A DNA stretch of 64,000 bases from Naegleria gruberi (GCA_000004985.1 GG738859.1); one strand, 5' to 3'. Counted from the stretch's first letter, positions 7,928 to 46,385 are shown. The notes: generated by a model from the letters alone, not told the origin. Numbers and translations are program-made.

Positions 7928-10683
7928 ATGAGTGTAAGCGCAGAGTGGGTCCAACTCGGAAAGGGTAAGAAGGGAGTACCAGTGTACTACCGAAAGAAAG
8001 AAATATACACTATGGAATGGGGAGATGATAATATTAATCTCTCCGAATGTCTGATCGCTGCTGCAAATTTTGGTGGACCTATTGGTAGGTGTAAAATTTT
8101 TATTATTTAATATTTAACGATTTTTTCAAAATATTACCATCGTCATCATAATTAAAAAACTCTCTGCAGCTCTCACAAGGGATCCTAAAAAGTTATTAAG
8201 ATTTAGAGGAACTGATTCAAAACAATATGTACATGTATTTTCAAGTTCAGGAAAAAGAATTTCAAAATTTGAGGTAGGTTATTTAGTTTGAGTTTTTTGA
8301 GATCAATTTTATAAGTGGAATACACAATTAAACAAATCACTCCTTTATATGGGATGGACACAAGAGGAATCCTTGATTTGTGTAACAGAGTAAGTGGCTC
8401 CTGAACTTATGAAATTTAAACCTGTATAAATAGTGAGGCTCACGTATTCATTTTCGATATTTTTGGAAAACAATTACAACAATTCCCATTCCCAGAGGAA
8501 GTTAAAAGTGCTGGAATTTTAAAAGTTAAACATTGGGAAACTGGTATTGCTATTCTTACAAGAGATTTTAATGTTTGGGTAATTTCGGATTTGGAATTTA
8601 TTGATTGTCAACAATTAGCTTCTCTAGGTAGGTAAAACATTTCAAATTTGTATGTGATAGATTTTTAATAGATGTTCCACTTGAATTCAATGATGAAAAG
8701 GAAATTGGAATGTGTATCTTACAACCAAATATTGCAACAAGTGGAGATTTGGAAGTAATTATCAGTGTACCTCAAGCAAGAACTGTTTATGTTGTAACTT
8801 CTGAGGAATGTAATAATTTAGGACTCGATAATGGTCCATTTCCTAAAATTTGTGCCTCTCCTTCCGGAGAAGCTTTAGCCACCTTTAATGAATCTGGATC
8901 ATTGTGGGTTGTTAAATCCGATTTTACTGAAAACCATGCAGAATTTGATACAAGATCATCAAGTACACCATCACAAGTAGCTTGGTGCGGTGAGGATAGT
9001 GTTTGTTTATATTGGGAACCTGAACAAGTTAATAATAGAGAAGGAAATGTATCTTTACTTTTAATGATTGGACCAAATGGTGACTATAGCACATTCACCT
9101 ATGATAGTCCAATTCACCTTGTGACAGAAATTGATGGTGTCAGAGTTATTACCAATGATTCCTGTGAATTTTTGCAAAGAGTACCAGAAGCAAACTTTGA
9201 TATTTTCAAAATTGGTTCTCTTACTCCATCAGCCATGCTCTATGATGCCTACATTGAATTTGAAAAGAAGAATGCCTCATCAATCAATAATATTAGATCT
9301 ATTAAGAATTCGCTAAGAGGAGCCGTTAATGCTTGTCTTGAGGCTGCTGCAAATGAATTTGATACATCCCTTCAAAAATCCCTTTTACGTGCTGCTTCAT
9401 ATGGTAAATCCTTTTGTGATGAATTTGAACATTCCGAGTTTGTTAATACTTGTAAAATTCTTAGAGTTATGAATGCTGTCAGAGATTCGAATATTGGTAT
9501 TCCAATCACTTTGGATCAATACAAGAGATTAACACCAAAAGTTTTAATAGATAGACTTGTGAATAGAATGCAACATTTGGTAGCCTATAGAATTTGTACC
9601 TACCTCAAGATCAAACCAAACAATGTACTTGTTCACTGGGCTTGTTCCAAAGTACTGTCTAATGAAGATGATCATGTAATATTGGATTCCATTGATAAGA
9701 AGCTTTCTGAATGTGAAGGTGTTCCATTTTCTACTGTAGCTTCAACTGCCTACAGTGTAGGTAAGAAGAACTTAGCTATTCAACTCTTGGAAAGAGAAGA
9801 AAGAGCTAGCGAACAAGTTCCACTCCTTTTAAATATGAATGAAACTAAGAATGCTCTCAGAAAAGCCATTATCAGTGGTGAAACTGATCTTGTCTATTTG
9901 GTACTTCTTCACATGAAGAAAAACATGGAAGTATCAAGCTTCTTCTCTGTAATTAATGAAAAGGGATTCAGAGTTGCTAGAAATCTTCTAGTAACATATT
10001 GTAAGGAGAGAGATATTGATTTCCTTAAAATTTTCTTCCATGCTTTGGATAAACAAGAGGAAGCAGCTGCTATGAATGTATTTGAATCATTCTCATTTGA
10101 AGGGGAACCAGCAGCTCACAAGAAGCTCCTACTCCAAGCTAAAGAACTCTATAATAAGAAGAAGGATTACCAATTGGACAGTAAACTTTGTGAAGAACAA
10201 GTTAAATTGCTCCAAATGCAAAGAGAGTTTGATAACGCATTGGGAAGACAATTATTTACAGGACTTTCTGTTAGTGAAACTATCTATCAATGTCTCCTTA
10301 ATGGTAACAAACAAGCAAAGAAAGTCAAGAAGGAATTCCAAGTTTCTGATAAAAAGTTTTGGTGGTTAAAGATTGCTGCCTTCTCCAAGTTGGGCAAGTG
10401 GAATAAGATGGAAAAATTCTCCAAGAAAAAGTCACCAATAGGATACAGACCTTTTGTTGAGGCATGCTTACAACAAAAGAATACAGTAGAAGCCCACAAG
10501 TACATTCCAAAAGTAACAGATCCATGGGAAAAGATTGAACTTTATGTAGAATTATTGTCTTTCAAGGAAGCCATCGAAACTGCTTTCGCACACAAGAATA
10601 CTGACATGCTTAGATGGATTAGAACCAAGACAAACCACTCTCAAACCAAGTTAACAATTGATGATTTACTTTCTAAACTCTAA
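7928..10683 (+). CDS. VPS16: VPS16 (HOPS/CORVET subunit). Five exons: 7928..8084, 8170..8273, 8316..8389, 8434..8627, 8672..10683.
   Basis: Exon 1 MSVSAEWVQLGKGKKGVPVYYRKKEIYTMEWGD..LSECLIAAANFGGPI matches human VPS16 WNPLGD..FYRKYELYSMDW..LRDCLVAAAPYGGPI. The long last exon contains [63 protein letters not shown] (human [63 protein letters not shown]) and C-terminal KKFWWLKIAAFSKLGKWNKMEKFSKKKSPIGYRPFVEAC (human [40 protein letters not shown]). Introns are 85, 42, 44 and 44 nt with GTAGGT/GTAAGT donors and AG acceptors; phases checked. An alternative for the last intron (8579..8670, GTAATT donor) also keeps frame. Confidence 0.8.
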
Positions 10684-26828: not shown

Positions 26829-27974
26829 ATGCCACCAAAAAAGAAGACAACACCATCATCTGATCCCTATGATGATCCTCTCTTCCTTCAGGTTATTGCC
26901 GATGTTGAGAGGAAGAGAAAGCGTATGATGGCAAGAATGAAGGGTGATGACGATGATGATGGAGATGTGTTTCGTATTACTCGTGTTGTGACGGAAAATC
27001 CTGATGGAACAAGAAGTGCAAGAAATGTTTTTTACGACCCGAATGATGAATATGCTGATGATGATGATGATGACGATGATGAAATAAGCATTCCCTCATC
27101 GAGAAGTTCTTCATCTAGGAAATCATCTTCAAAATCTTCTACTAGCAGAGCAGCAACAACCTCTTCTAGCAGTAGAGCATCCACTGCATCATCAAGTAGT
27201 AATTTAAGTAGTGCACTTAGTGCAATTATGGGAGGTTCTACTTCTCGTTCTAACTCTAATGCACCTGCTGTTGTGCCTCCTGAAGATGTTGGAATTTATA
27301 CAGAATATGGTTATCAATCAACTAGAGAAGCACTTGATGAACAAATAACGTCAACTAGAGCCTACAGAGCTCTCTATCAAGTTAAAGCAGTTATTACTTC
27401 TCCAACTACGAAAAATGTTGTGTATAGAGAATTTGTCATCTCTGCCACAATTTTATTCAAGAATCTCAACGAGTTGCTTTGTCTTTTGTTTGGTTGGTCA
27501 ACTGTTGAAAATTATCATTTTACATATGAAAAGGATGGAGAAACAAAGCAAATCTTGAAAAGAGCTGGTAAAAATAGTCAAGGTGTAAGCAGTACAAAAT
27601 TCTGCCAAGTTTGTCCATATCCAGGAGATTCCTGTGTTTGGTATCCAAATGCTACCACCCAAGTTAGCCTAACTGTCGATGTTATTAATTTAGATGGACA
27701 AGTGGAATCCGTTCCAAGATGTGTTGGATTAAATGGTAAAATTGATTTGGACACTGGTAAACAAGGTACCCTTAATGAAACTGAAACCAATATTGATAGA
27801 GTAAATTCAAAGCTCAAAGGAAAGAGATTTGCAGCCAATTCAGCTAGTAATAACACCAAGAAGAAGGGCATAAAAATGTTAGTCCCTAGAGACACTACCC
27901 AGTCAGAAATTAATCAAATAGCCAATAATGTTTATAGATCTAAATTATTTACACCTGACAGAACTAAATTCTAA
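26829..27974 (+). CDS. Hypothetical protein with poly-Asp and Ser-rich low-complexity N-terminal half and a Cys-containing globular C-terminal half
   Basis: ATG at 26829 (aaaaaaaATGcca). (GAT)n-encoded Asp runs. No family recognised. Confidence 0.4.
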   Translation: MPPKKKTTPSSDPYDDPLFLQVIADVERKRKRMMARMKGDDDDDGDVFRITRVVTENPDGTRSARNVFYDPNDEYADDDDDDDDEISIPSSRSSSSRKSSSKSSTSRAATTSSSSRASTASSSSNLSSALSAIMGGSTSRSNSNAPAVVPPEDVGIYTEYGYQSTREALDEQITSTRAYRALYQVKAVITSPTTKNVVYREFVISATILFKNLNELLCLLFGWSTVENYHFTYEKDGETKQILKRAGKNSQGVSSTKFCQVCPYPGDSCVWYPNATTQVSLTVDVINLDGQVESVPRCVGLNGKIDLDTGKQGTLNETETNIDRVNSKLKGKRFAANSASNNTKKKGIKMLVPRDTTQSEINQIANNVYRSKLFTPDRTKF

Positions 27975-28103: not shown

Positions 28104-29372
28104 ATGTCTACAGCACAGAGTTGTAATTTTTCATACAAAATTCCCTATTTTGAAACACCAAGTGAAGGATCAACACACTTTAATGTTGGTCTCTGCATTG
28201 GAAAACAATTTAAAGATCAAATCAATGAATATTTGACACGATCCGATCTTCCCTTCCAATCAATTTATTTACCCTATGTATTATCAAAGAAAGATGATCA
28301 AGATGAGTCAAGAAGAATTGAAAAAGAGGCACAATCAACATCTTCCGAAGGTGATCATTATGCACTGTTGAGACCTTGGATTCAACTTGTTGATGAGCAC
28401 TTTCCGAAATATGTTCAGGAAATTCGTGGATTAGCTGCAGGTTCAGAGCAACCATTCGAGTGGCTCTTCATGTTGAACATGTTGAATGAATTGAGGGGTA
28501 AAATATTGCACGATGAAAGATTGAAGGATAAAAAGACGACAAAAGTTGGAGGATGCTCTGAAGTGTTTGTCTGTTGTAAAACCAGTGAAATGGAAAGGGC
28601 ATTGATGGCTCACAATGAAGATGCTGATAAGAGTATGGGCGAATATTCATATATTGTGAAGAGTAATTATTTGGAGGAGAATGGATCTGTTGTTAGGAGT
28701 ATGGTTGCCTATCATTATCCTGGAACAATTGGAGGAAATACTTTTGGATGGAATGAATATTTGGTTTTTGGAACGAATGGAAAATCACCAAAGAAAACCC
28801 TCACAGAATCTTGTGGAATACCAAGATGTTTCATTAATAGATATGTGTACGAATCAAAGAGTATTGAGGAGGTTCACACAAGGTTGGAAGAATATGCCCT
28901 TCTTAGTTCATCAGGATTTTCCACCAATGTTTCAACTCGATTTATTGTTAAGGATGACGTGAATGATTTTTATCAAATGGCTAATATTGAGTTGGCTCCT
29001 TCTCTTGATGGTAAAGAAAAGCAAGTTTCTAAATATTCTATTCCAATTAAGAGAAATAATTCAGATCAACCTCACTATGTACATGTCAATCATTATTTGC
29101 ACTTGATGAATATTCCAGAGGAGGAAGTCCCAAGCTCCAGGCACAGATATGCAAGAGCAATGTGTCATTCCAATATAATATCAGAGAATGAAATTATTCA
29201 ATTGTTGGGAGATACAGAGGACAAGGAATATCCAATCTTTAGAACAAGCAATCACCCAGATAAGGGAAAGACTTTGGCTACCTTTATTGTCAATATAATT
29301 GAACAAACTGTTAATATCTATGTTGGCAATCCAATTCACACACCTCCACTTTATACAATGACATTGTTTTAA
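28104..29372 (+). CDS. Putative Ntn-hydrolase of the peptidase C45 / acyl-CoA:6-aminopenicillanic-acid acyltransferase-like family
   Basis: An internal Gly-Cys (..KTTKVGGCSEVFVC..) follows a propeptide of about 148 residues, as at the self-cleaving G|C nucleophile site of C45/AAT enzymes. The overall length (422 aa) and downstream His/Arg-containing segments are compatible. This is a weak assignment from pattern memory only. Confidence 0.3.
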   Translation: MSTAQSCNFSYKIPYFETPSEGSTHFNVGLCIGKQFKDQINEYLTRSDLPFQSIYLPYVLSKKDDQDESRRIEKEAQSTSSEGDHYALLRPWIQLVDEHFPKYVQEIRGLAAGSEQPFEWLFMLNMLNELRGKILHDERLKDKKTTKVGGCSEVFVCCKTSEMERALMAHNEDADKSMGEYSYIVKSNYLEENGSVVRSMVAYHYPGTIGGNTFGWNEYLVFGTNGKSPKKTLTESCGIPRCFINRYVYESKSIEEVHTRLEEYALLSSSGFSTNVSTRFIVKDDVNDFYQMANIELAPSLDGKEKQVSKYSIPIKRNNSDQPHYVHVNHYLHLMNIPEEEVPSSRHRYARAMCHSNIISENEIIQLLGDTEDKEYPIFRTSNHPDKGKTLATFIVNIIEQTVNIYVGNPIHTPPLYTMTLF

Positions 29373-29379
29373 TAACATG

Positions 29380-31317
29380 TTAATCAGCTTTATTTTTCAT
29401 TATTTGTCCATTCATTGTTAAACATTTGGCACGTATTGGTGAAATTGTTTTAGAGATGGATTGTTGAGAGAGTTTAGAATTGGAGGTTTGGGAAATTTCC
29501 ATCTTGATTTCCAAACAACCAAGAATTAAGGCATTGTACATGAACGTTTTCTTATCCTTTTGAGAGGTATTTACAAGGTTGGAAAGGAAGAAATCTCTAG
29601 TATTGGCATCACCAAAATACATACAACCACATTCTGAAAGCTTAGTAAGAGTGTTAGTAATCTTGGTAATTTTCATAATCTTCAATCCCCAAGTGTTATC
29701 AATTACGTCCATACTAGAGTTATCGTAACCTTCAGATTTTACACAGACAACATATTCACTCCTTTGAGAATCATAAAAGTTTGTAGCAAGCATATTGAGC
29801 TCCTTTCCATTAGAACCACTGAATCTGCTGAATAATGAAGAACCACTACTACTTGGAACATTTAGAATTTCATCGTAACAATAAAACTGACGATTTCCTC
29901 CATGTACATTAAAGTGAGGGTCTAACAAATCAGTTCCAAGTTGATTGTCCTTACTCTTCTTTTTCTTTGAAATAATAAAGTGGTTCTTTTCCAACATTTG
30001 GAATACTTCATGATGAGTGAATGGAAGATAACTGTGATATTTCCAGATTGAGGTCTTATCTAGTGGGAGATCATGATGAATTTTTCTATTTACATTCTTG
30101 GAGATCATTGAAAATGTGAATGTCCCTCCATTTCTTGACAAGTAATCCTTGTGTACATGGTTTGGAATACACTTGTTGGAATTGATTGCCTCCATATTTG
30201 AAGGAATGGTATATACAATATCCCAATCCGGTGAATCAGCCATTAATGAGTTCATATAGTTCATGTGTTCTTCAGAGAGGAAGAGTGATGATTTCATTTC
30301 AGCAAGAGATTTGAATAATGATTCTCTTTCAGACCTTACTGGTATAGCCAACATGTTGAGAAATTCTGAAACGTTTCTATTCGATAAGAGGAAGATATTA
30401 TCCTTGGATTTTCTTCTATGTGATCTATTTTCAAAGTGGTGGTGATGATTGAAACTGACTCCACTTGTTGAAGTAGCTGTACTGTTAGTATCAGCTGATT
30501 CTTCCTCATCATCTTCATCTGAATTGTGATTGGTAATAGCAAATGAATTTCCTTCCCGTTCTCCATCCAATTTCGAAGTATCTTTGAGTGTTGAATATTC
30601 CGTATCAGTATGTCTTGAACTTAGTGATGATTCGTCTGAAAGTTTAATGTCTAGAATGGCATTAGAATCTGTACTTCCAATAAATGTCGAATCATCTATA
30701 CTCGATTGAGTTGCAGAATATGAATTAGCAGGTGAGTGTGCTGCAGCTCTTCCCAAAATCAAATTATTAAAATGGTCAGAATGAATGCTCAACGTTGTTG
30801 AACTCTCAGTATTTCTAGGAGATGTCAAATAAGAATTACTCTTCTTAATACTCCTCAATCGATTGATAATGTGCAATTTGAAAGCATCAGTTCTAATAAA
30901 CCTTGGAAAGGCATCATGTTTCAAAAAGCATTCAATCTCCCACTTCTTCTCAGCATATAACAAGTTATCATAATAAGATGGATTATGTTTCATTTGCAAA
31001 TACAATGAGAGAAGAGGAATATATCTACCATCACTATCACTTTCCAGAAAGTGTTTAAACAAGGACAATATCGTTTGTTGAGCATAAACTGAGGATGAAT
31101 CATTGGCCTCCATCGTCGATGCACTCAAACAACTCTCCATATCAAATGAGTAGTGTTTGAAAATTGATCGTTCCTCCTTCGTTACCTTCTTTCCAGTATG
31201 ATGAGAAATATTAGCCTCTCCTCCCTGTTGTTGCTGTATCTGATTCATTTTCAGTGAGAGTACTTGTTGGTGATTAATACCATTCACTGATGATGCACTT
31301 GATGCTGTAGAGGTCAT
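29380..31317 (-). CDS. RGS-domain protein with a START/Bet-v1-like C-terminal half (paralog of the 34249..36174 gene)
   Basis: RGS-like helix pattern near the N-terminus: ..SLFKHFLESDSDGRYIPLLSLYLQMKHNPSYYDNLLYAEKKWEIECFLKHDAFPRFIRTDAFK.. Acidic/Ser-rich linker. C-terminal region ..SEYVVCVKSEGYD..WGLKIMKITKITNTLTKLSECGCMYFGD.. has alternating beta-like segments. ATG at 31317. Confidence 0.5.
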   Translation of the reverse strand: MTSTASSASSVNGINHQQVLSLKMNQIQQQQGGEANISHHTGKKVTKEERSIFKHYSFDMESCLSASTMEANDSSSVYAQQTILSLFKHFLESDSDGRYIPLLSLYLQMKHNPSYYDNLLYAEKKWEIECFLKHDAFPRFIRTDAFKLHIINRLRSIKKSNSYLTSPRNTESSTTLSIHSDHFNNLILGRAAAHSPANSYSATQSSIDDSTFIGSTDSNAILDIKLSDESSLSSRHTDTEYSTLKDTSKLDGEREGNSFAITNHNSDEDDEEESADTNSTATSTSGVSFNHHHHFENRSHRRKSKDNIFLLSNRNVSEFLNMLAIPVRSERESLFKSLAEMKSSLFLSEEHMNYMNSLMADSPDWDIVYTIPSNMEAINSNKCIPNHVHKDYLSRNGGTFTFSMISKNVNRKIHHDLPLDKTSIWKYHSYLPFTHHEVFQMLEKNHFIISKKKKSKDNQLGTDLLDPHFNVHGGNRQFYCYDEILNVPSSSGSSLFSRFSGSNGKELNMLATNFYDSQRSEYVVCVKSEGYDNSSMDVIDNTWGLKIMKITKITNTLTKLSECGCMYFGDANTRDFFLSNLVNTSQKDKKTFMYNALILGCLEIKMEISQTSNSKLSQQSISKTISPIRAKCLTMNGQIMKNKAD

Positions 31318-31961
31318 TTTGCTATTGGAGTAATTTTCAAAGGCTTTGTTTTCGCGGTTTTTTTTTAATATTTTGTTAGTAGATGTTGAATTTGTCTCTT
31401 TAAAGCTGTTAGATAACTTGGAGTTTTGTTAATAATGCAGCATGAATGGTGTTGAAATACTTCATGAGCATGAAATGTTTCGTGTAGTCCAATTATGTCC
31501 ATAGAAAGACAAGTCTTGATTGAAATGGATAAGGTGAAAGCATCATGAACAGCAAGTGAATCGCTCGAATAATTAAAATAGAAAGTATCGAATTGGTTTA
31601 ATACCTATCTCTAGAGAGGGAGAGAAGCAGAACTACAGTTATTCGGCAGAGAGAAACTATTCGAAAGTTGTCAAGTACTATTTAAGAGTTGATGTAAATT
31701 CTTTCTGAAGTGTCTTATCCATTGTCCTTAAATTCAATTATTGGTTCGCACCTTATTCGAACAGTAACAATTTCGAATTAATCCTTCGACAAAGATCATA
31801 AAAAGTCTATGTGAACGATTGGTAGAGCTTGGTTGATGAGAAAACTAAGGAAAGGTTGGTGACAAACAATAATGCACAACTGTAGAGTAGAACATGTTCA
31901 GTAAGAGAGATAGAGTTTAACAAAGAAGAAATTTGACAAATTCTAGAAAACCGTGACCAAT

Positions 31962-33017
31962 TTATTGCTCTGGTTTGTTATACAACAAACACGAAAGAGA
32001 AGGCAATACATTTGCTGGTTGTGGCTTGGCATACAAGTCAAGTGTTGATCTTTCTGGAGGAGTTGTCAATAATGCAGAAAGAGGTGGCAATGTTTCAAAT
32101 GGCTTTTCAAAGATTCCTCCAAATGGAGGAGGAGCAATTCTTGAAACACATTGTTGGATTGGACTTGGAACCTTTGTTGGTTCTGGGAATTGCTTTTGAG
32201 AACAAGTTGAATTTGAGAGTGGTGAATGACAATAGGGACCGATATTATCATAACATGGTCTTCCGCTTACACCATCAAACCTTTGCTCTGGTGATGATAC
32301 TCTTGAATAGTTTGGAGGAGAATAAGGACCATTATATGGAGTAGGATCAACAGGAGGAGATGTTATCATATTATTCTGAGTTGAACATCTCTGATATTGA
32401 TGTGTGTAAGGCACAAAACCTCTTGGTGCATTGTTATCAACGTTGGAATGTTGATAACTTGGTTGAATGACATTGTGGTAACTTTGAGAACCAGCATTGT
32501 AGACATTAGTAGCATAGTGTTGTTGAGACAAGACAGAAGGCTGTTGCGGAGGTGTTTGAATAGGTTGGAAAACGACACTGGATTGTTCCATGATGGGTTT
32601 AGATAACAATACATTGGAAACATCCACCATTTGCTTCTTTCTCTTCTTCTTTGTAATTCCTCTTTGTGGATCAACCTTGTTCTTCTTTGGCTCTTCCTTC
32701 TTCAAGAACCAATGTGAAAGATGGTGTTCGCCAACCTTTCTTGATTGTACAGAAGTACTGTTCTTGCCCAATGATCCACTAGCTTCAGAGTCTAGTAAAC
32801 AATTTGATCCACCAACTTGATTGTTGGATGATCCACTACTATTGTTATCATCAACCACTTTTTGCTTTCTTTCCTTCTTTTGGGGAGTTGCAGCACTAAC
32901 ACTGTTTTCAATGCTCGAAAAGATTTTAACCTTCGGATCCTTTACAAAGAAATTAAAGGATTTTGTTGATTGATATTCGTCAGTTGTGCTTAATTGTTGT
33001 GCTGTACCACCACTCAT
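31962..33017 (-). CDS. Hypothetical Pro/Gln/Ser-rich protein with a basic KKKRKK patch (possible nuclear protein)
   Basis: ATG at 33017. ..RGITKKKRKKQMVD.. resembles a nuclear localisation signal. Long P/Q/S/Y-rich low-complexity C-terminal half. No domain recognised. Confidence 0.35.
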   Translation of the reverse strand: MSGGTAQQLSTTDEYQSTKSFNFFVKDPKVKIFSSIENSVSAATPQKKERKQKVVDDNNSSGSSNNQVGGSNCLLDSEASGSLGKNSTSVQSRKVGEHHLSHWFLKKEEPKKNKVDPQRGITKKKRKKQMVDVSNVLLSKPIMEQSSVVFQPIQTPPQQPSVLSQQHYATNVYNAGSQSYHNVIQPSYQHSNVDNNAPRGFVPYTHQYQRCSTQNNMITSPPVDPTPYNGPYSPPNYSRVSSPEQRFDGVSGRPCYDNIGPYCHSPLSNSTCSQKQFPEPTKVPSPIQQCVSRIAPPPFGGIFEKPFETLPPLSALLTTPPERSTLDLYAKPQPANVLPSLSCLLYNKPEQ

Positions 33018-34248
33018 TTAGATGACAATAAATTTGGAGGTTTATCTTTGCAATACCAGAGAGTCTTCTCAGAATAATAATGATAATACAATATGAATAG
33101 TTTGAATAATTCAATTGTTGTTGTTGTTATGTGTTATACAAGTAGGATTAAATTTCTATACCGCAAGCAAAAATACTCAACGCGCAATGCTGAATTGCTT
33201 CTTGAATATCAGATATTAGGTACAGAGGTTTAAAAATATTTTTTTTTAAATAATATCAGATGCAGAAAAGAGCGAAGATGGTGGCGATGAATGTATTCAA
33301 TTATCGGAGATGGTAGCCATAAAAGAACGATGAGTAACGACTTGGTTAAAAATGCGAACCTTTAACGCCATTTTTAAATTGTCATTTCTTCGCTTATGCA
33401 TCAACAAAACCAACTAAGGCACCACTACCTTAGATGAACCTCTCAGTAAACAGCCTTATAGTTTACAAAATGATGAAGGATTCTCTTTAGGGGTTATTAA
33501 ACCGAACTCTATCACCAAACAGCTATATATCTAAAAAAGTCAATTGGCTGTTAATGCAGATAAAGGTCTAAAAGGAATTGTTAATTAAAATGTTGAACTT
33601 TACAAAAAAACCAAACATGACTGTGTTCAAACAGTGTGCATGGCTTTATTTGTTTTCGTTCACTTTCCAACAAAACTTTGTTATTTCATGAAAACCGACA
33701 CAATCAAAAACACATACGTATTTAAAAGGAATCTTTGTTAATAGATTCGAAATATGGCTGTCATCCAAATGGAATCTCTAACTACAGTAGAATGGATACT
33801 ATTACTTTAACCGCGCCCAAACTACAATTAAATTATTAAACTCGTCCTTAAAGAACAGATTCGTTATTGATTCATTTATTATAATGTTTTATCTGTTTTA
33901 GATATGCTATTTTCCTTAGGGGTGTCTCCGAAGCGAAATCACAAACGTCTTGACCGATATGTCTATAATTTTTAAAATTGTTTAGCAAGACAACCAAAAT
34001 CACAGTGAGGCGGATTTTAAAACTTTTCAAAAAAAACCATCGAAACTCTTCTCTCAACTCAGAAGGCAGACAACCACAACTTTCAACAGCTATTTGTTGC
34101 CCGACTCAAAGTGGATAAATTCAAAGTCTAAGATCTGAAAGGTTCATCATCACCATCATTATCAAAACACTGAATTATATTGTTTGCATTGGAGTTTAAA
34201 CATTGGATATTTAAATATTATTGATACTATTATCAAAGAAACACTGAG

Positions 34249-36174
34249 ATGAAACCCTTGTCGTCTTCCTCAACTTGTACAACAACAAGAAAACCATTAC
34301 GGGAGGTGGTTTTTATGGATGAAAGTAAATTACCATCATTGGATTTGCCATCTATCGTGATGATCGGAGGAGATTCATCTTCCATTGATGGAGTTTCTTC
34401 ATCATCCAATTCTTCATCACCTAATCAACCAATGATTGTATTGAGTCATACGGATAATCGTCATCAGAGAATTACCTCTATGCAATTTAATTCAATGAAG
34501 GCTATTCAGGAGCATATGGGTATTTTAGAAGATGATGGAGAGGATGAAGATTCGAATACAGATTCATCAACTAATAGTAGTATTACTAGTAGTCAGGGAC
34601 AAACCGCAATTAGTACAAAATCAAATAATATTCATTCAACATCATCTCCGAGTAGATATGAAAGCAGTCTTTCACCACCATCCTCACCACAAACATCATC
34701 CTCACCTAAAATGTCATCTCCACTGACAGGTTTATTAAAATTGGCATTGAGAAAGAAGAATTCAAAATCTACCTCACCATCCACTTCAAGTGATAATGTT
34801 TCCAATTCTTCGTCAATGAGTACGAGCACATCATTATCAGAAAAGAAAAAGAAAAAGAAGGAGAATCATCACAAAATTGATCTCAATGACTATCTCTTTA
34901 CATACGAGAAGGTCATTAGTAATGGAGAAACAAGTCAACTCTTTCTCAAGTTTTTGACAATGAAGAAAACTTCTGAAAGCTTACTTTTCGTACTGAAATT
35001 TAGAGAACTGAAATCAGCATTTAAGTCAATAAGCGATCAAGCCAGTGACAAGCAGGAACAATATAGAAATACTCTGAAAACAATCGAGGAATTATACAAG
35101 TGCTTCTTTGCATTTGATTCTTCTATGGAATTGAATTTACCACTCAATTTACATGAGCCAACCACAAAGATAATGGAAGAATACGAATCCAAGAGAGAAA
35201 AACTTGCAGATGATGAAATTGTTTCAATCATTTCTAATATTTTGAGCGAGTTTAAAAAAATCGAGAGCTATTTAAATTTGAATTTGAAAGAGTGTCAATT
35301 TTTGGAATTTTTGGAATGGGAAAAGTTTAGAAAATTTATTACCAATAAGGGGTCGATACATTTAGCAGAGATTGCAGAAATGAAACCTTTCTCTCATACA
35401 TCATTTGTTGAAAGTTTAGTGACAGAAATGAGCAAACCAAGAATTACTGTCAAACAAGCAAAACAGATCAAACATCTAGTGGTAAAGAACACATCTATAT
35501 GGACACCAATTATAACAGAATCCAATTATATAGTGTCATTATCCAACAATCAATACTTACTAGGCGAGGAAGAGTCAAACTCTTCTAATAAGGGTGTTTA
35601 TTTTTTCAAGTATGAGATTACATTCCCATATCCAAAACAAGCTGTCATCAACACACTTCTCAGCTCAAAGCTCAGATTCAAGTTTGATAAGAATACTAAA
35701 ATGCTTTCAAAGATTGATTATTTCCCTAAAGAAGATAACGAAAATCTGGCAACTTGCATCTCACAAGAGGTTTATGATTTTCCTTTCCCTTTCCAATCAA
35801 GAGAAATGGTTCTTGCCTGTGCTGTATTCAATGATTTGACCGATAATTCAACCATGTTATGTCTGAGGTCGTGTGAAAGTGATAAAGCTGTCAAGCTCAA
35901 AAAAACTGTCAAGGCAAAGAATGTTGGCTGTTGGATTTTCCAAGATTTGAATGGAACTCACACTAGATATATACAATTCGTTGGAGCTGATTTCAAAGGT
36001 TTTCTACCACCAAAACTAGTTAAATCAAACGTTGCTAAACGTGCCAAGTATTACTATGCAGATAGTTTGAAAATGTTCGAACATCCAGAAGACGATTTCA
36101 AGGAGCCACAGGATGATCCTCTTTATTCTGGTTTTATGGATACACTCAAGGAAAATGGTGGGTTATCTATTTGA
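34249..36174 (+). CDS. RGS-domain protein with a START/Bet-v1-like C-terminal half (paralog of the 29380..31317 gene)
   Basis: After a Ser-rich N-terminus: DLNDYLFTYEKVISNGETSQLFLKFLTMKKTSESLLFVLKFRELK..EELYKCFFAF (RGS-like). C-terminus ..FPFQSREMVLACAVFNDLTDNSTMLCLRSCESDKAVKLKKTVKAKNVGCWIFQDLNGTHTRYIQFVGADFKGFLPPKLVKSNVAKRA.. is START-like. ATG at 34249. Confidence 0.5.
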   Translation: MKPLSSSSTCTTTRKPLREVVFMDESKLPSLDLPSIVMIGGDSSSIDGVSSSSNSSSPNQPMIVLSHTDNRHQRITSMQFNSMKAIQEHMGILEDDGEDEDSNTDSSTNSSITSSQGQTAISTKSNNIHSTSSPSRYESSLSPPSSPQTSSSPKMSSPLTGLLKLALRKKNSKSTSPSTSSDNVSNSSSMSTSTSLSEKKKKKKENHHKIDLNDYLFTYEKVISNGETSQLFLKFLTMKKTSESLLFVLKFRELKSAFKSISDQASDKQEQYRNTLKTIEELYKCFFAFDSSMELNLPLNLHEPTTKIMEEYESKREKLADDEIVSIISNILSEFKKIESYLNLNLKECQFLEFLEWEKFRKFITNKGSIHLAEIAEMKPFSHTSFVESLVTEMSKPRITVKQAKQIKHLVVKNTSIWTPIITESNYIVSLSNNQYLLGEEESNSSNKGVYFFKYEITFPYPKQAVINTLLSSKLRFKFDKNTKMLSKIDYFPKEDNENLATCISQEVYDFPFPFQSREMVLACAVFNDLTDNSTMLCLRSCESDKAVKLKKTVKAKNVGCWIFQDLNGTHTRYIQFVGADFKGFLPPKLVKSNVAKRAKYYYADSLKMFEHPEDDFKEPQDDPLYSGFMDTLKENGGLSI

Positions 36175-36768: not shown

Positions 36769-37743
36769 ATGACTGATCAATCTGTTGACGATTTTGAACT
36801 TTCTGATGATAATTCTTTAAAGATTATTGTTGTTGGTAGGTTTGTGAATGATGAAATATTTGTATTCAAATAACAACCAATAACTAATAACAAAATATTT
36901 AAAAATTAGGTGATGCGAGTGTTGGTAAAACATGCATGTTAATTTCATACAGGTAAGATATTTGGAATTTTTCATATTTAAATTCTTGATTATCCACCAC
37001 ACTTCAACATTATAATGAATGACATGTGTCATCATTGTGCTTTTTAACAACAAATATCATCAACAGTAATAACGAATTTCCAACAGAGTATAACCCTACA
37101 GTATTTGGTTAGTAGTCATTCAAATAATTATAATATTCATAATTCTTTTCTAATTCAATAACAACTTTGATGAATTTTTGAATATACAGACAATTATACA
37201 GCTAACGTAGTTTACAAGGAAAAAACTGTCACATTGGGATTATGGGATACTGCTGGTACTGACGAAGTAAGTAAACATGGTGATGTTCCGTGCCTTTTAA
37301 CATTTGAATAGTATGATCAATTGAGACCGTTATCTTATCCCGACACTCACATTTTTGTTATTGTATTTGATTTAACTAATAAGGATTCACTTGAATCAGT
37401 TACGAAGAAGTGGGTTCCTGAAATTAAAGAACACACTAAAGATAGACCAGGTGGTGTACCATTCATCATTGTTGGAAACAAATTGGACTTGAGAAATGAC
37501 CCAAAGGAAAAGGATAAATGTGTTCCAAGGTGAGTTGATTTTCAATTACAATAATCTAATTGAGATTGTAGATCTGATGGTGAAAAAGTTAAAACAAAGA
37601 CTGGAGCTGCTCGTCTCTTAGAATGTAGTGCCAAGACTCAAGAAGGACTGAAAGATGTATTTGAACAATGCATAGAAGTTGTCATAGAAAACTACATGAA
37701 AAAGAAGAAGGGAGGAAAGAAGGATAAATGTACACTCCAATAA
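36769..37743 (+). CDS. Rho/Rac-family small GTPase with a polybasic tail and CaaX box. Six exons: 36769..36835, 36910..36952, 37067..37107, 37190..37266, 37312..37529, 37572..37743.
   Basis: Spliced product: MTDQSVDDFELSDDNSLKIIVVGDASVGKTCMLISYSNNEFPTEYNPTVFDNYTANVVYKEKTVTLGLWDTAGTDEYDQLRPLSYPDTHIFVIVFDLTNKDSLESVTKKWVPEIKEHTKDRPGGVPFIIVGNKLDLRND...LECSAKTQEGLKDVFEQCIEVVIENYMKKKKGGKKDKCTLQ*. Carries the G1-G5 motifs, the Rho insert context and a C-terminal CTLQ. Introns are 74, 114, 82, 45 and 42 nt (GTAGGT, GTAAGA, GTTAGT, GTAAGT, GTGAGT donors). All phases verified by hand. Confidence 0.8.
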
Positions 37744-43478: not shown

Positions 43479-46385
43479 TTAGTTAATATTAATTTGGATG
43501 ATTTCGTTCTTGTCAGTTTCGAAAGGTTCCAGAACGACGTTCACTTGTGAATCAATAATATCTGGTAATATTGATAGAGTTGACTTGACTAATCTTCCCT
43601 TTTCCAAATCTGACATCCATTTAAAGTATAAATTATTTGGCTGTTTCGTATTTTCTCTTCTTGTTTGTTGTGAAATCAATAGAGAATGACATGCCTTTCT
43701 AAGATTTTCAATATTTACAAATGGTAAATGAACAACCATCTTGGAATAGTGATAGAATGGATCTTTCAATGAATTTTTCAATCCTTCATCATTTGGATCA
43801 ATATCTAAATCTTCCTCAATCGTATGATTACTCTTCTTATGGTACAAATCATAAATTGTCGAGGTGTGAGATGAGATCAATTGGGAGAGAACTTGTTTTT
43901 CCTGATCGGTGTGAAGACACTCGTGCACGAGTTTGATTTTGTGGAGTGGGATCACTGCAAGTAAGCTTTCAATTGGATTCAGAGGAAGTCCCTTGTGGAA
44001 GGTTATTTCTGTGAAGAGTTCTTTCAAATTTACAAAATCACTAGCTGCAGGAGCATAATGGAAGTTATAGGAATATTCCCAAGATGGCACTCCAAAGTAG
44101 TAATAATAAAAGGTCCAGTACATTGCCTTGAGGTATTCCTTGACAAGTTCTCTCACTTGAGGACCTCCACCTTTTGAGGAGCTATCATAAGTGATATTGA
44201 GCTTTCTACTATAATAATTAACTTTCCACTTTTCCATATCAACATAGGGTGGAGGTGGCATTCCTTCTTTTTTCTTGAGTGAAATGCTAGATGTCAATAC
44301 TTTGAATTTCTTGACTCTTTCCTCCTCTTGATGGAATTCAAAGCTCAAATTATGTGTCTTTTGCTTGTAATCTTTCTTTTTGTAATTTTTCTTTGAAACC
44401 TTTACAAGTTTGCTTCCAGTCTTGGTTGATACATTTCCAAATACTACTAATTGTTCTACTGAGGTTTGCATGGATGTGTTGACTTGATTCTCAATAATAA
44501 TTGAGAGTTTGCTCACATTTTGGAAAGCACTGAGTTTCAATTTGAGTTCACATCCACTTGCTTGAATGGATTCTATTAAATCTTTTCCTTTGAATTCTTG
44601 ATTTATCTTGTGAGAGTCTATTGAAACAAAATCTACAGTTTGATTAATAAATAATTTGATGGAAATTCCTTCCAAATCTTTTGGTGTAGAATTATTGATA
44701 CGAATTAGTAAGCTGCACAGACTGAGAGGTTGTTTAAATGGAATGTCGAACATTATTTCAGAGTCGATATTACTCTTAGCAATATAGGTACTTGTGAATT
44801 TTCCTGAAACGCTAGCAGTGATGGAAGAGAGCATGAGGAACCTCTTCATTTCAATATCTGAATTTAGAGCGAGTGACTTGTCTAAATCAATCATTGCCAA
44901 TAGATTTTTAAAATGTTCAGTATTGACAACGGATTTAACAACCTCGAGATCATTATCATTTTGGTGACCGGCTTTAGGTTTGCTTTCTTCTTCACTTGCT
45001 GTTGTGGTGGTACTGGCCTGCTCTTTAGCTTTGGTCCTCTCCTCTATTGATTTCTTCTCATTGATCAATTGAAGCTCCTTCTTGAGTCTGTTTGTGAGAA
45101 CTCTCACCTCAAGACGACCAATTACTTGCATGAAAGTTTCTAATCTTTCCAAATTGATGAGTTCTGAAGGATTTGAAGAGTTGGTAATGTAGCATCCCTT
45201 AAAGACAGTTGAAAATAGAGTTCTATAAACTTTGAAGAGGTAACCAAGTGCATTTTCGTCCTTTCCAATATCTAGAGTTGGAAGTGAAGAAATAAAGTCA
45301 TTTCCACAAACAAACAACATGAGAATGAAATCATCAATCACTCTATTCAAATCAAATTCAATACTAGAATTCAAATCTTGTCTCATATATTTTTCAATTA
45401 ATTTTCTAACAAGAGAAATTTCCACCAAATGAAACTTGTGATCAAATCTGTCCTTGTCAACTGTTCTACTCGAAGAATTTGATTTCTTTTTAAAGTTTCT
45501 TCTAACTTTCCATCTAGAATACACTTGATTAAAAGAATCAGACACTGAAGGCATCCAATCTCTTAACACATAAATATCCTCCTCATGAGTAACTAGAGAA
45601 AGTAATATCAAATCACTATCCATACCATAAATCATGAATTTTTCACTCTTTCTATTTGGAATTTGTTGAACTTTTCTAATATGACTCATAATCTTGTGTT
45701 CTCCCTCACCAAACACACTCGAATCTGAAAAGATAATATTCTCAATATTTCTCCAATTTGGATCATCTTGTAATTTCCTCTTGATGAAAAACTGCAAATG
45801 TTCAGATAATTCCTTCATAAAACTAGTTCCACTCGTAATGGAAATTGAATCAAACAATGATTCATCCTCCTTCTTCTTTCTATTTTCCTCTCCGTGATGA
45901 AGATCATGTTGTTCTCCGTGATGATTTCCATGCTGATGGTGATGATGATGTCTCTTTGGTAAGCCAGAGTGATTATTGAATGAAACCCATCTTCTCTCAC
46001 GTTGCTGATTAATCTTGGCACATGGTGCTGATCCATCGAGAGCAAACATCAATGTCTTGGATGGTCTAAACCGATAGATTACCTCCTCCAAATATAACAG
46101 AATGGAAAAGATGAATTTTTCCATCGTCATCGGAATTTCCACTTCTTCATTATTTGATGAAGATGAAGAGGATGAAGAAGAGGACGATGATACTAGACGT
46201 TCCAATAATTTAGTTTGTAAATTAGTGTCCTTGAAGGTATGTATTATTCCATTCATATCAAGATAGAGATGATCAATAGTCATTGTTGTATTGGATGAAG
46301 AGGATGCTGATGAGGATGGAATGATTTCCTTGATCATCTCTGGACATTCACTCAACAGAAATGAAAAGAGAAACGGAACACCCAT
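43479..46385 (-). CDS. XRN-family 5'-3' exoribonuclease, divergent paralog (968 aa)
   Basis: N-terminus MGVPFLFSFLLSECPEM (XRN MGVP-x-FF-x-WL). LYLDMNGIIH. ..FALDGSAPCAKINQQRERRW (XRN AIDGVAPRAKMNQQRSRRF). SDSSVFGEGEHKIM. YGMDSDLILL. Catalytic acidic residues are present. Inserted 15-residue poly-Ser and His-rich (RHHHHHQHGNHHGEQHDLHHGE) tracts. ATG at 46385. Confidence 0.65.
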   Translation of the reverse strand: MGVPFLFSFLLSECPEMIKEIIPSSSASSSSNTTMTIDHLYLDMNGIIHTFKDTNLQTKLLERLVSSSSSSSSSSSSNNEEVEIPMTMEKFIFSILLYLEEVIYRFRPSKTLMFALDGSAPCAKINQQRERRWVSFNNHSGLPKRHHHHHQHGNHHGEQHDLHHGEENRKKKEDESLFDSISITSGTSFMKELSEHLQFFIKRKLQDDPNWRNIENIIFSDSSVFGEGEHKIMSHIRKVQQIPNRKSEKFMIYGMDSDLILLSLVTHEEDIYVLRDWMPSVSDSFNQVYSRWKVRRNFKKKSNSSSRTVDKDRFDHKFHLVEISLVRKLIEKYMRQDLNSSIEFDLNRVIDDFILMLFVCGNDFISSLPTLDIGKDENALGYLFKVYRTLFSTVFKGCYITNSSNPSELINLERLETFMQVIGRLEVRVLTNRLKKELQLINEKKSIEERTKAKEQASTTTTASEEESKPKAGHQNDNDLEVVKSVVNTEHFKNLLAMIDLDKSLALNSDIEMKRFLMLSSITASVSGKFTSTYIAKSNIDSEIMFDIPFKQPLSLCSLLIRINNSTPKDLEGISIKLFINQTVDFVSIDSHKINQEFKGKDLIESIQASGCELKLKLSAFQNVSKLSIIIENQVNTSMQTSVEQLVVFGNVSTKTGSKLVKVSKKNYKKKDYKQKTHNLSFEFHQEEERVKKFKVLTSSISLKKKEGMPPPPYVDMEKWKVNYYSRKLNITYDSSSKGGGPQVRELVKEYLKAMYWTFYYYYFGVPSWEYSYNFHYAPAASDFVNLKELFTEITFHKGLPLNPIESLLAVIPLHKIKLVHECLHTDQEKQVLSQLISSHTSTIYDLYHKKSNHTIEEDLDIDPNDEGLKNSLKDPFYHYSKMVVHLPFVNIENLRKACHSLLISQQTRRENTKQPNNLYFKWMSDLEKGRLVKSTLSILPDIIDSQVNVVLEPFETDKNEIIQININ

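Follow-up and report, generated by a model that had tools for sequence, protein, structure and literature searches.

Are the two genes that lie almost side by side in a stretch of the Naegleria gruberi genome a pair of related G-protein regulators, or two separate proteins that happen to share a combination of domains? The question arose from a preliminary description of a window of 64,000 nucleotides (the whole stretch analysed here, from GCA_000004985.1 GG738859.1, with positions counted from its first letter). It presented gene A (29380..31317, minus strand) and gene B (34249..36174, plus strand) as a head-to-head pair of paralogs within a G-protein-signalling neighbourhood, each coding for an RGS-like helical bundle followed by a START-like half. 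The explanation that we favour, with a probability of roughly 0.6 as a whole, is that A and B are distinct and anciently diverged RGS-START multidomain proteins of Naegleria and Willaertia, and that their layout as neighbours is incidental. The analyses given below establish the domain content of the two proteins, their conservation in sister species, and the lack of detectable sequence similarity between them. The described order of domains held for both proteins, by Pfam matches in the orthologues of B and by predicted fold in A. The coordinates of both open reading frames (ORFs) turned out to be exact, and all the quoted motifs were found: FKHFL and KWEIECFLKHDAFPRF in A, LFLKFL and SLLFVLKFRELK in B.

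Gene B (NAEGRDRAFT_65731, UniProt D2VA42) is a single uninterrupted ORF of 641 residues, identical to the deposited model, which bears the name "predicted protein". Its first 205 residues form a low-complexity stretch with 28% Ser. The RGS domain follows (34903..35337, plus strand, residues 219-363), some 30 extra residues being inserted ahead of its last helices, and it passes almost directly into the START region, with no long linker. The Pfam cut-offs used were 23.9 bits for RGS (PF00615) and 22 bits for START (PF01852). Between residues 219 and 363, B matches the RGS profile along its whole length (positions 2-117) with 21.5 bits. When the C-terminal half is searched alone, START matches at 19.6 bits (E 6e-4, profile positions 57-194 of 207); the match itself spans 35638..36057 on the plus strand (residues 464-603), and the whole domain extends over residues 405-616 or so.

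The relatives of B make the assignment firmer. Searching with the RGS and START part of B, we found three of them: C9374_006079 of Naegleria lovaniensis (P0014, 825 residues), FDP41_000126 of Naegleria fowleri (P0006), and an environmental sequence (P0007). The last passes the cut-off for RGS with 41 bits. The N. lovaniensis protein has both domains on one polypeptide, RGS at 24.5 bits, above the cut-off, and START at 21.2 bits, 0.8 bit below it. The N. fowleri protein scores 23.9 bits for START, which is above the cut-off, and is named "START domain-containing" in UniRef. Furthermore, START is the best-scoring Pfam family in the C-terminal half of B and in those of its N. lovaniensis and N. 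fowleri orthologues alike. Judging by these profiles, B is an RGS-START protein at the level of its family, because its orthologues pass the cut-offs for RGS and for START and the one from N. lovaniensis bears both domains. The same architecture is thus present in other genomes, as C9374_006079 for B and, for A, as a similar layout in N. fowleri, N. lovaniensis and Willaertia magna.

The N. fowleri orthologue of B shows a peculiarity of its own. The deposited model (VFQX01000001.1, L001 9482-10492) has 346 residues and contains START only. The stretch coding for the central part of its RGS domain, equivalent to residues 403-477 in N. lovaniensis and containing NIELNLPLHLHEP, is found in reverse orientation, on the opposite strand (L001 9851 to 9636). 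It is flanked by co-linear pieces on the plus strand, which end at 9631 and restart at 9980. A search for inverted repeats on its flanks gave none above 16 nucleotides. What is seen here, over at least 216 bp of an unaligned interval of 348 bp, is either an inversion or a misassembly, and either event would explain the START-only model; a real inversion would mean that the RGS domain of the N. fowleri protein is no longer intact.

Gene A (NAEGRDRAFT_79171, 100% identity over the full length) is also a single uninterrupted ORF, of 645 residues. It starts with an RGS-like helical domain with seven predicted helices (30835..31185, minus strand, residues 45-161), continues with a disordered linker (30388..30834, minus strand, residues 162-310; 20% Ser, 11% Thr, 9% Asp), and ends with a START-type helix-grip domain (29482..30315, minus strand, residues 335-612 approximately) that is invisible to sequence profiles. 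The acidic and Ser-rich linker had been attributed to both proteins; it exists in A but not in B, where the Ser-rich stretch precedes the RGS domain. In the AlphaFold2 model of A, the linker has no secondary structure and a predicted local distance difference test score (pLDDT) below 50; among orthologues it is weakly conserved and varies in length. Proteins with a matching layout occur in N. lovaniensis, N. fowleri, W. magna (three paralogs) and environmental contigs, and a short RGS-like N-terminus is common to every full-length member of the family. A profile of the 340 C-terminal residues of A, searched against 1.84 billion representative proteins, retrieved only eight: the three Naegleria orthologues, the three W. 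magna paralogs, and environmental sequences. We also considered a wrong fusion of two genes as the origin of A or B and rejected it, given the uninterrupted ORFs, their identity to the deposited models and the orthologues of like layout.

While each Naegleria species has one member of the A family, W. magna has three (ABK040_011059, ABK040_011747 and ABK040_011097; P0009, P0010 and P0011), two of which lie on one contig of 333 kb. These paralogs lack most of the acidic linker.

Could A fall outside this architecture altogether, its RGS likeness being a remnant or a matter of chance and its START-like model an artefact of a shallow alignment? The Pfam searches go some way in that direction. RGS matches A at 14.7 bits, over residues 124-147 only, and the four members with a match (A and the three W. 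magna paralogs) score between 14.7 and 15.9 bits, all below the cut-off and all over the last helices (profile positions 84-117 or so). Four further members (P0003, P0004, P0005 and P0008) have no RGS match at E<=1. The START profile has no match at E<=10 in the C-terminal halves of A and of the three W. magna proteins, nor any in the full-length members. In addition, the structural model, built from an alignment of eight sequences, has a mean pLDDT of 51.7. Nevertheless, pLDDT rises to about 70-87 over most of residues 45-161 and to 50-80 over the core of the C-terminal half (residues 310-580), where the model predicts a helix, three strands, a helix, five long strands and C-terminal helices. 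Compared with 48,164 chains of the PDB, this half has START domains as all of its ten best matches, with 157-182 residues aligned, and nearly all the matches beyond these are other proteins of the Bet v1/SRPBCC fold. Foldseek, an independent method, agrees (STARD10, E 1.7e-4, probability 1.0). The predicted model thus shows a helix-grip fold as large as a START domain (about 200 residues), and at a medium level of confidence the START domain of A is borne out by its fold. At the other end of the protein, the profile of the N-terminal domain matched only RGS proteins among PDB sequences, except for one low-scoring match to the homing endonuclease I-MsoI, in which no single stretch was significant. 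The three Naegleria proteins are named "RGS domain-containing" in UniRef, and their family aligns collinearly with RGS4 and RGS17 over helices alpha1-alpha3 and alpha6-alpha9. Taken together, these results make it highly improbable that A lacks the RGS-START architecture. When the full A profile was searched against the PDB, subunit 6 of cytochrome bc1 was matched through the acidic linker, and we discarded this match as compositional.

The RGS domains deserve a closer comparison, since they bear on what the two proteins might do. Using MAFFT, we aligned the A and B families with RGS4 and with RGS17 (the latter rebuilt from printed alignments), taking the contact residues from the complex of RGS4 with Gi-alpha-1 (PDB 1AGR). 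The A family follows both references over alpha1-alpha3 ("FDxxxCL ... LFKxFL") and again over the last helices ("EKKxEIExxLKxDAFPRFIR"), separated by a gap of 43 columns in which alpha4-alpha5 and the Asn128 loop, with its Asn/Ser position, are absent. Hence A does not have the complete nine-helix RGS box with its Asn loop. It has Arg and Tyr at the positions of Glu87 and Asn88, and it keeps the equivalents of Asp163 and Arg167, as well as the contact motif "D-x-F-P-R-F" of alpha7-alpha8. Canonical activity of A as a GTPase-activating protein (GAP) is doubtful, because some 43 residues are absent, among them the Asn loop between alpha5 and alpha6, which touches the switch regions of G-alpha. 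The RGS box of B looks complete, near full-length and nearer to the canonical form than that of A. Its best sequence matches in the PDB are RGS proteins of the R4, RZ and R7 groups, and Glu is kept at the position of Glu87. In the HMMER alignment, an Asn of B ("ELNLP") falls on the position of Ser in RGS17 and of Asn128 in RGS4; this equivalence is tentative, because MAFFT places the Asn segment in another register.

Comparison of these domains suggests that B may be a working GAP and that A probably is not. Heterotrimeric G-protein signalling is restrained chiefly by RGS proteins, and where the G-alpha subunits activate themselves, as in plants and Naegleria, it is through these proteins that signals come in. 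In the mechanism that we propose, B would act on G-alpha as a GAP through its near full-length RGS domain, its target being one of the self-activating G-alpha subunits of Naegleria. Its START domain would bind a membrane lipid or sterol, and the place of the encounter between the GAP and G-alpha, or whether it happens at all, would depend on this binding. Such a coupling of lipid binding to GAP activity is plausible for B. For A it is doubtful, because the RGS-like domain has neither the alpha4-alpha5 segment nor the Asn loop. A would more probably be a non-catalytic binder or scaffold of G-alpha, or else a protein that has departed from G-protein signalling, because the alpha4-alpha5 segment and the Asn loop were lost while the "D-x-F-P-R-F" motif was kept; its START fold is predicted to be intact. 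Since the G-alpha subunits of Naegleria are self-activating and the GAP step is the regulated one (PMC9283941), an RGS-START protein could gate signalling. A stronger version of this idea takes B for a soluble intracellular "receptor", in which occupancy of the START domain by a sterol or phospholipid switches the GAP activity of the RGS domain with no transmembrane receptor involved, and A for a degenerate, GAP-dead decoy or scaffold, its family restricted to Naegleria and Willaertia and its START domain diverged beyond the reach of sequence profiles. We consider this version quite unlikely.

Several observations weigh against the reading of A and B as RGS-START proteins with these roles. B itself lies just below both cut-offs (21.5 against 23.9 bits for RGS, 19.6 against 22 bits for START). 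Its AlphaFold2 model, built from an alignment of three sequences, has a mean pLDDT of 40.5, with values below 50 in the START region, and gives no support for START at the level of the fold. The profile of the START region of the B family matches no START chain among PDB sequences, and neither do the profiles of full A and full B. At the positions of Asn88, Asp163 and Arg167 of RGS4, B has Ser, Cys and Glu, and the Asn at the position of Asn128 depends on the alignment used. The contact numbering depends on the RGS4 sequence used here, and the RGS17 sequence is a reconstruction. For A, the model reaches medium confidence only. Finally, the GAP activity and the lipid binding of both proteins are predictions from sequences and models. 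Of the profile searches and structure predictions that had been proposed as checks, the former find RGS and START in the B family but only sub-threshold RGS and no START in the A family, and the latter recover a START fold for A but not for B.

There is another view, in which START is the working part, engaged in lipid transfer or sensing, and the RGS or RGS-like domain docks to membrane-bound G-alpha or another partner with no GAP activity. This is the main rival of the explanation that we favour; GRKs, axin and sorting nexins, whose RGS-homology domains are non-catalytic, would be parallels. The missing helices and Asn loop of A, its Arg and Tyr at Glu87 and Asn88, and the substitutions of B at three of the contact positions all fit with it. 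So do the best fold matches of the helical domain modelled for B, among which are the non-GAP RGS-homology domains of SNX13, PDZ-RhoGEF (rgRGS), axin and GRK1, and the better conservation of the START-fold half in both families. However, B matches the whole of the RGS profile, the R4, RZ and R7 proteins that it most resembles in sequence are catalytically active, and its environmental relative reaches 41 bits for RGS. Lipid transfer, for its part, is conjectural for A and B. On balance, a docking role for the RGS domains is possible though unlikely.

Are A and B then related to each other? The preliminary description took them for paralogs, possibly forming a divergent unit that would be part of a functional G-protein-signalling neighbourhood together with a Rho-family GTPase gene. 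The two proteins do have an identical order of domains and nearly equal lengths (645 and 641 residues). Their START halves are collinear in hhalign (WKYHSYLPFTHHEVFQML against FKYEITFPYPKQAVINTL), which falls short of significance and is what two START domains would be expected to show whether or not they have a recent common ancestor. Yet the best BLASTP E-value between A and B is 0.23, the hhalign probabilities between the family profiles are 4%, 1.5% and 0.6%, and B is not among the eight proteins retrieved by the C-terminal profile of A. Neither pairwise nor profile comparison therefore gives significant similarity, and the claim of paralogy was not upheld, although an ancient duplication of one RGS-START gene would be conceivable.

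The genes around A and B, compared among the three Naegleria species, speak to the same issue. The gene between them, rich in proline and glutamine (P/Q-rich; 31962..33017, minus strand, ORF of 351 residues), is indeed real and unrelated to A and B, and its protein has no match to a Pfam family. In both N. fowleri and N. lovaniensis it has a conserved counterpart by tblastn, near the orthologue of A, with a gene for an Aquarius-type helicase in between. A and B are on divergent strands, as described, but B shares its divergent intergenic region with the P/Q-rich gene and not with A. This region (33018..34248, no strand assigned) has the announced length, 1231 bp, but is only slightly richer in AT than its surroundings (GC content 0.318 against 0.339 in the window). 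It holds no ORF longer than 61 residues, no tRNA and no Rfam match, and a single tandem repeat of 33 bp. Downstream of B, the expected Rho-family GTPase gene is present (36769..37743, plus strand): it is interrupted by several introns, its product ends in the CaaX box CTLQ, and its exons, joined manually from a three-frame translation, match RacB, Rac1 and ARAC proteins of plants with E-values between 1e-52 and 1e-50.

In N. fowleri and N. lovaniensis the order of genes begins with a coiled-coil gene (plus), Rac (minus) and B (plus). After B come RdRP fragments, an acyl-CoA dehydrogenase, a flavodoxin/FAD reductase, a gene of 363 residues, a GPS-domain gene and an NHL gene; then P/Q (plus), the Aquarius helicase (minus), A (plus), a gene of 557/574 residues, Cyt-b5 and tubulin. 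A and B are thus on the same strand, 21-25 kb and about 9-10 genes apart. N. gruberi retains the outer markers (coiled-coil, Rac and B, then P/Q, A, Cyt-b5 and tubulin). The intervening block from RdRP to NHL, some nine genes, is missing from it, as is the Aquarius gene, and its B is inverted. The intergenic region 33018..34248 would coincide, as we infer, with the breakpoint of synteny with both species. Loss or relocation of the block of about 9-10 genes, together with the inversion of B, would account for the layout in N. gruberi. Since the sister species keep A and B co-directional and 21-25 kb apart, the divergent, nearly adjacent arrangement looks like a rearrangement specific to N. gruberi and not like a functional cluster.

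These comparisons leave little room for a paralogous, functionally linked unit. In each of the three Naegleria species A and B do occupy a common chromosomal region, a situation that an ancient local duplication could have produced, and the Rac gene adjoins B throughout. However, the orientation and the one-gene spacing of A and B are unique to N. gruberi, and the relative orientation of B and Rac varies between species, being divergent in N. fowleri and N. lovaniensis. The remaining neighbours are not signalling genes: they code for an AAT-like acyltransferase, a Cyt-b5/fatty-acid hydroxylase, tubulin, a coiled-coil protein, a kinesin, an XRN exonuclease and an F-box protein, and apart from Rac we found no G-protein-signalling gene among them. 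Moreover, the genome paper of N. gruberi reportedly gives about 15,700 genes. Combining this number with the 79 RGS proteins outside the seven-transmembrane (7TM) class of N. fowleri (PMC9283941), we roughly estimate that about one pair of RGS genes within two gene positions would be expected by chance. A divergent paralogous unit with a shared function is improbable, and the suggested signalling neighbourhood finds no support in the flanking genes or in the conservation of adjacency and orientation. Under the explanation that A and B are anciently diverged RGS-START proteins, the Rac gene would be an ordinary syntenic neighbour of B, in an arrangement with no regulatory meaning. The arrangement of A and B is itself of no special significance.

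How do A and B compare with known systems? The animal proteins DLC1, DLC2 and DLC3 (STARD12, STARD13 and STARD8) combine SAM, RhoGAP and START domains. Like B in the mechanism proposed here, they join a GAP and a START domain in one protein; in contrast to it, their GAP domain is a RhoGAP, which targets small Rho GTPases instead of heterotrimeric G-alpha. Pfam searches found RhoGAP and SAM in neither A nor B, and the likeness is limited to the START fold. The R4, RZ and R7 proteins (RGS4, RGS17, RGS6/7) give the best PDB sequence matches for the N-terminal domains of both A and B, which differ from them by the loss of about 43 residues in A, and in B by the insertion of about 30 residues and the non-canonical residues at the positions of Asn88, Asp163 and Arg167. 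We know of no START domain in these canonical RGS proteins. The classical START binders (STARD10, STARD4/5, StAR, MLN64, CERT, PCTP, ACOT11), which have a full-size helix-grip fold, are the closest structural neighbours of A and the Pfam family of B; unlike them, A is missed by the START profile, and the identity in structural alignments is only 8-15%.

The preliminary description did not know the combination of RGS and START as a described architecture. It had in fact been recorded: the survey of de Mendoza et al. 2014 (PMC3971589) explicitly names START as a repeated companion of RGS in divergent taxa. The survey lists architectures only, and the approach is based on Pfam, so the START domain of A would be undetectable there because it has no Pfam match. 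The N. fowleri orthologues of A and B are counted among the 79 RGS proteins outside the 7TM class of that species, within the expanded Naegleria RGS family (PMC9283941). Our literature search found no paper joining RGS, a START domain and Naegleria or Dictyostelium, no mention of the locus tags of A and B, and no functional study of RGS-START proteins; a single paper contained "RGS domain" together with "START domain", and it was unrelated. RGS-START is therefore an architecture already catalogued and uncharacterised, to which A and B are real additions, as they are to the multidomain RGS and START proteins in general. In terms of annotation, the "predicted protein" NAEGRDRAFT_65731 becomes an RGS-START protein, while in NAEGRDRAFT_79171 and its family an abbreviated RGS domain is combined with a START fold that profiles miss. 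If the proposed mechanism is true, a START domain on an RGS protein would offer a direct route from the state of membrane lipids or sterols to G-protein activity. N. fowleri is a lethal pathogen whose sterol metabolism is studied as a drug target.

Some further features of the window deserve mention. Next to A, a gene of 422 residues (28104-29372, plus strand) ends 7 bp from its stop codon in convergent orientation and matches the Pfam family AAT (acyl-CoA:6-aminopenicillanic acid acyltransferase / peptidase C45) with 82.5 bits. Upstream of it, an ORF of 381 residues (26829-27974, plus strand) matches PRiA4_ORF3 (plasmid pRiA4b ORF-3-like) with 24.8 bits, below the cut-off of 26.6. We found counterparts of neither in the syntenic loci of N. 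fowleri and N. lovaniensis (tblastn), and the AAT gene may be a lineage-specific insertion or acquisition. N. gruberi also lacks a NOMO-like gene and a gene of 486 residues between the kinesin and coiled-coil genes, and the whole points to many small rearrangements within an otherwise collinear region. Finally, the XRN-type 5'-3' exonuclease ORF (43479-46385, minus strand, 968 residues) contains an inserted PITH domain (residues 488-663, 85.5 bits), flanked by XRN_N on one side and, on the other, by the part of the XRN helical domain that matches best, with which it overlaps slightly.

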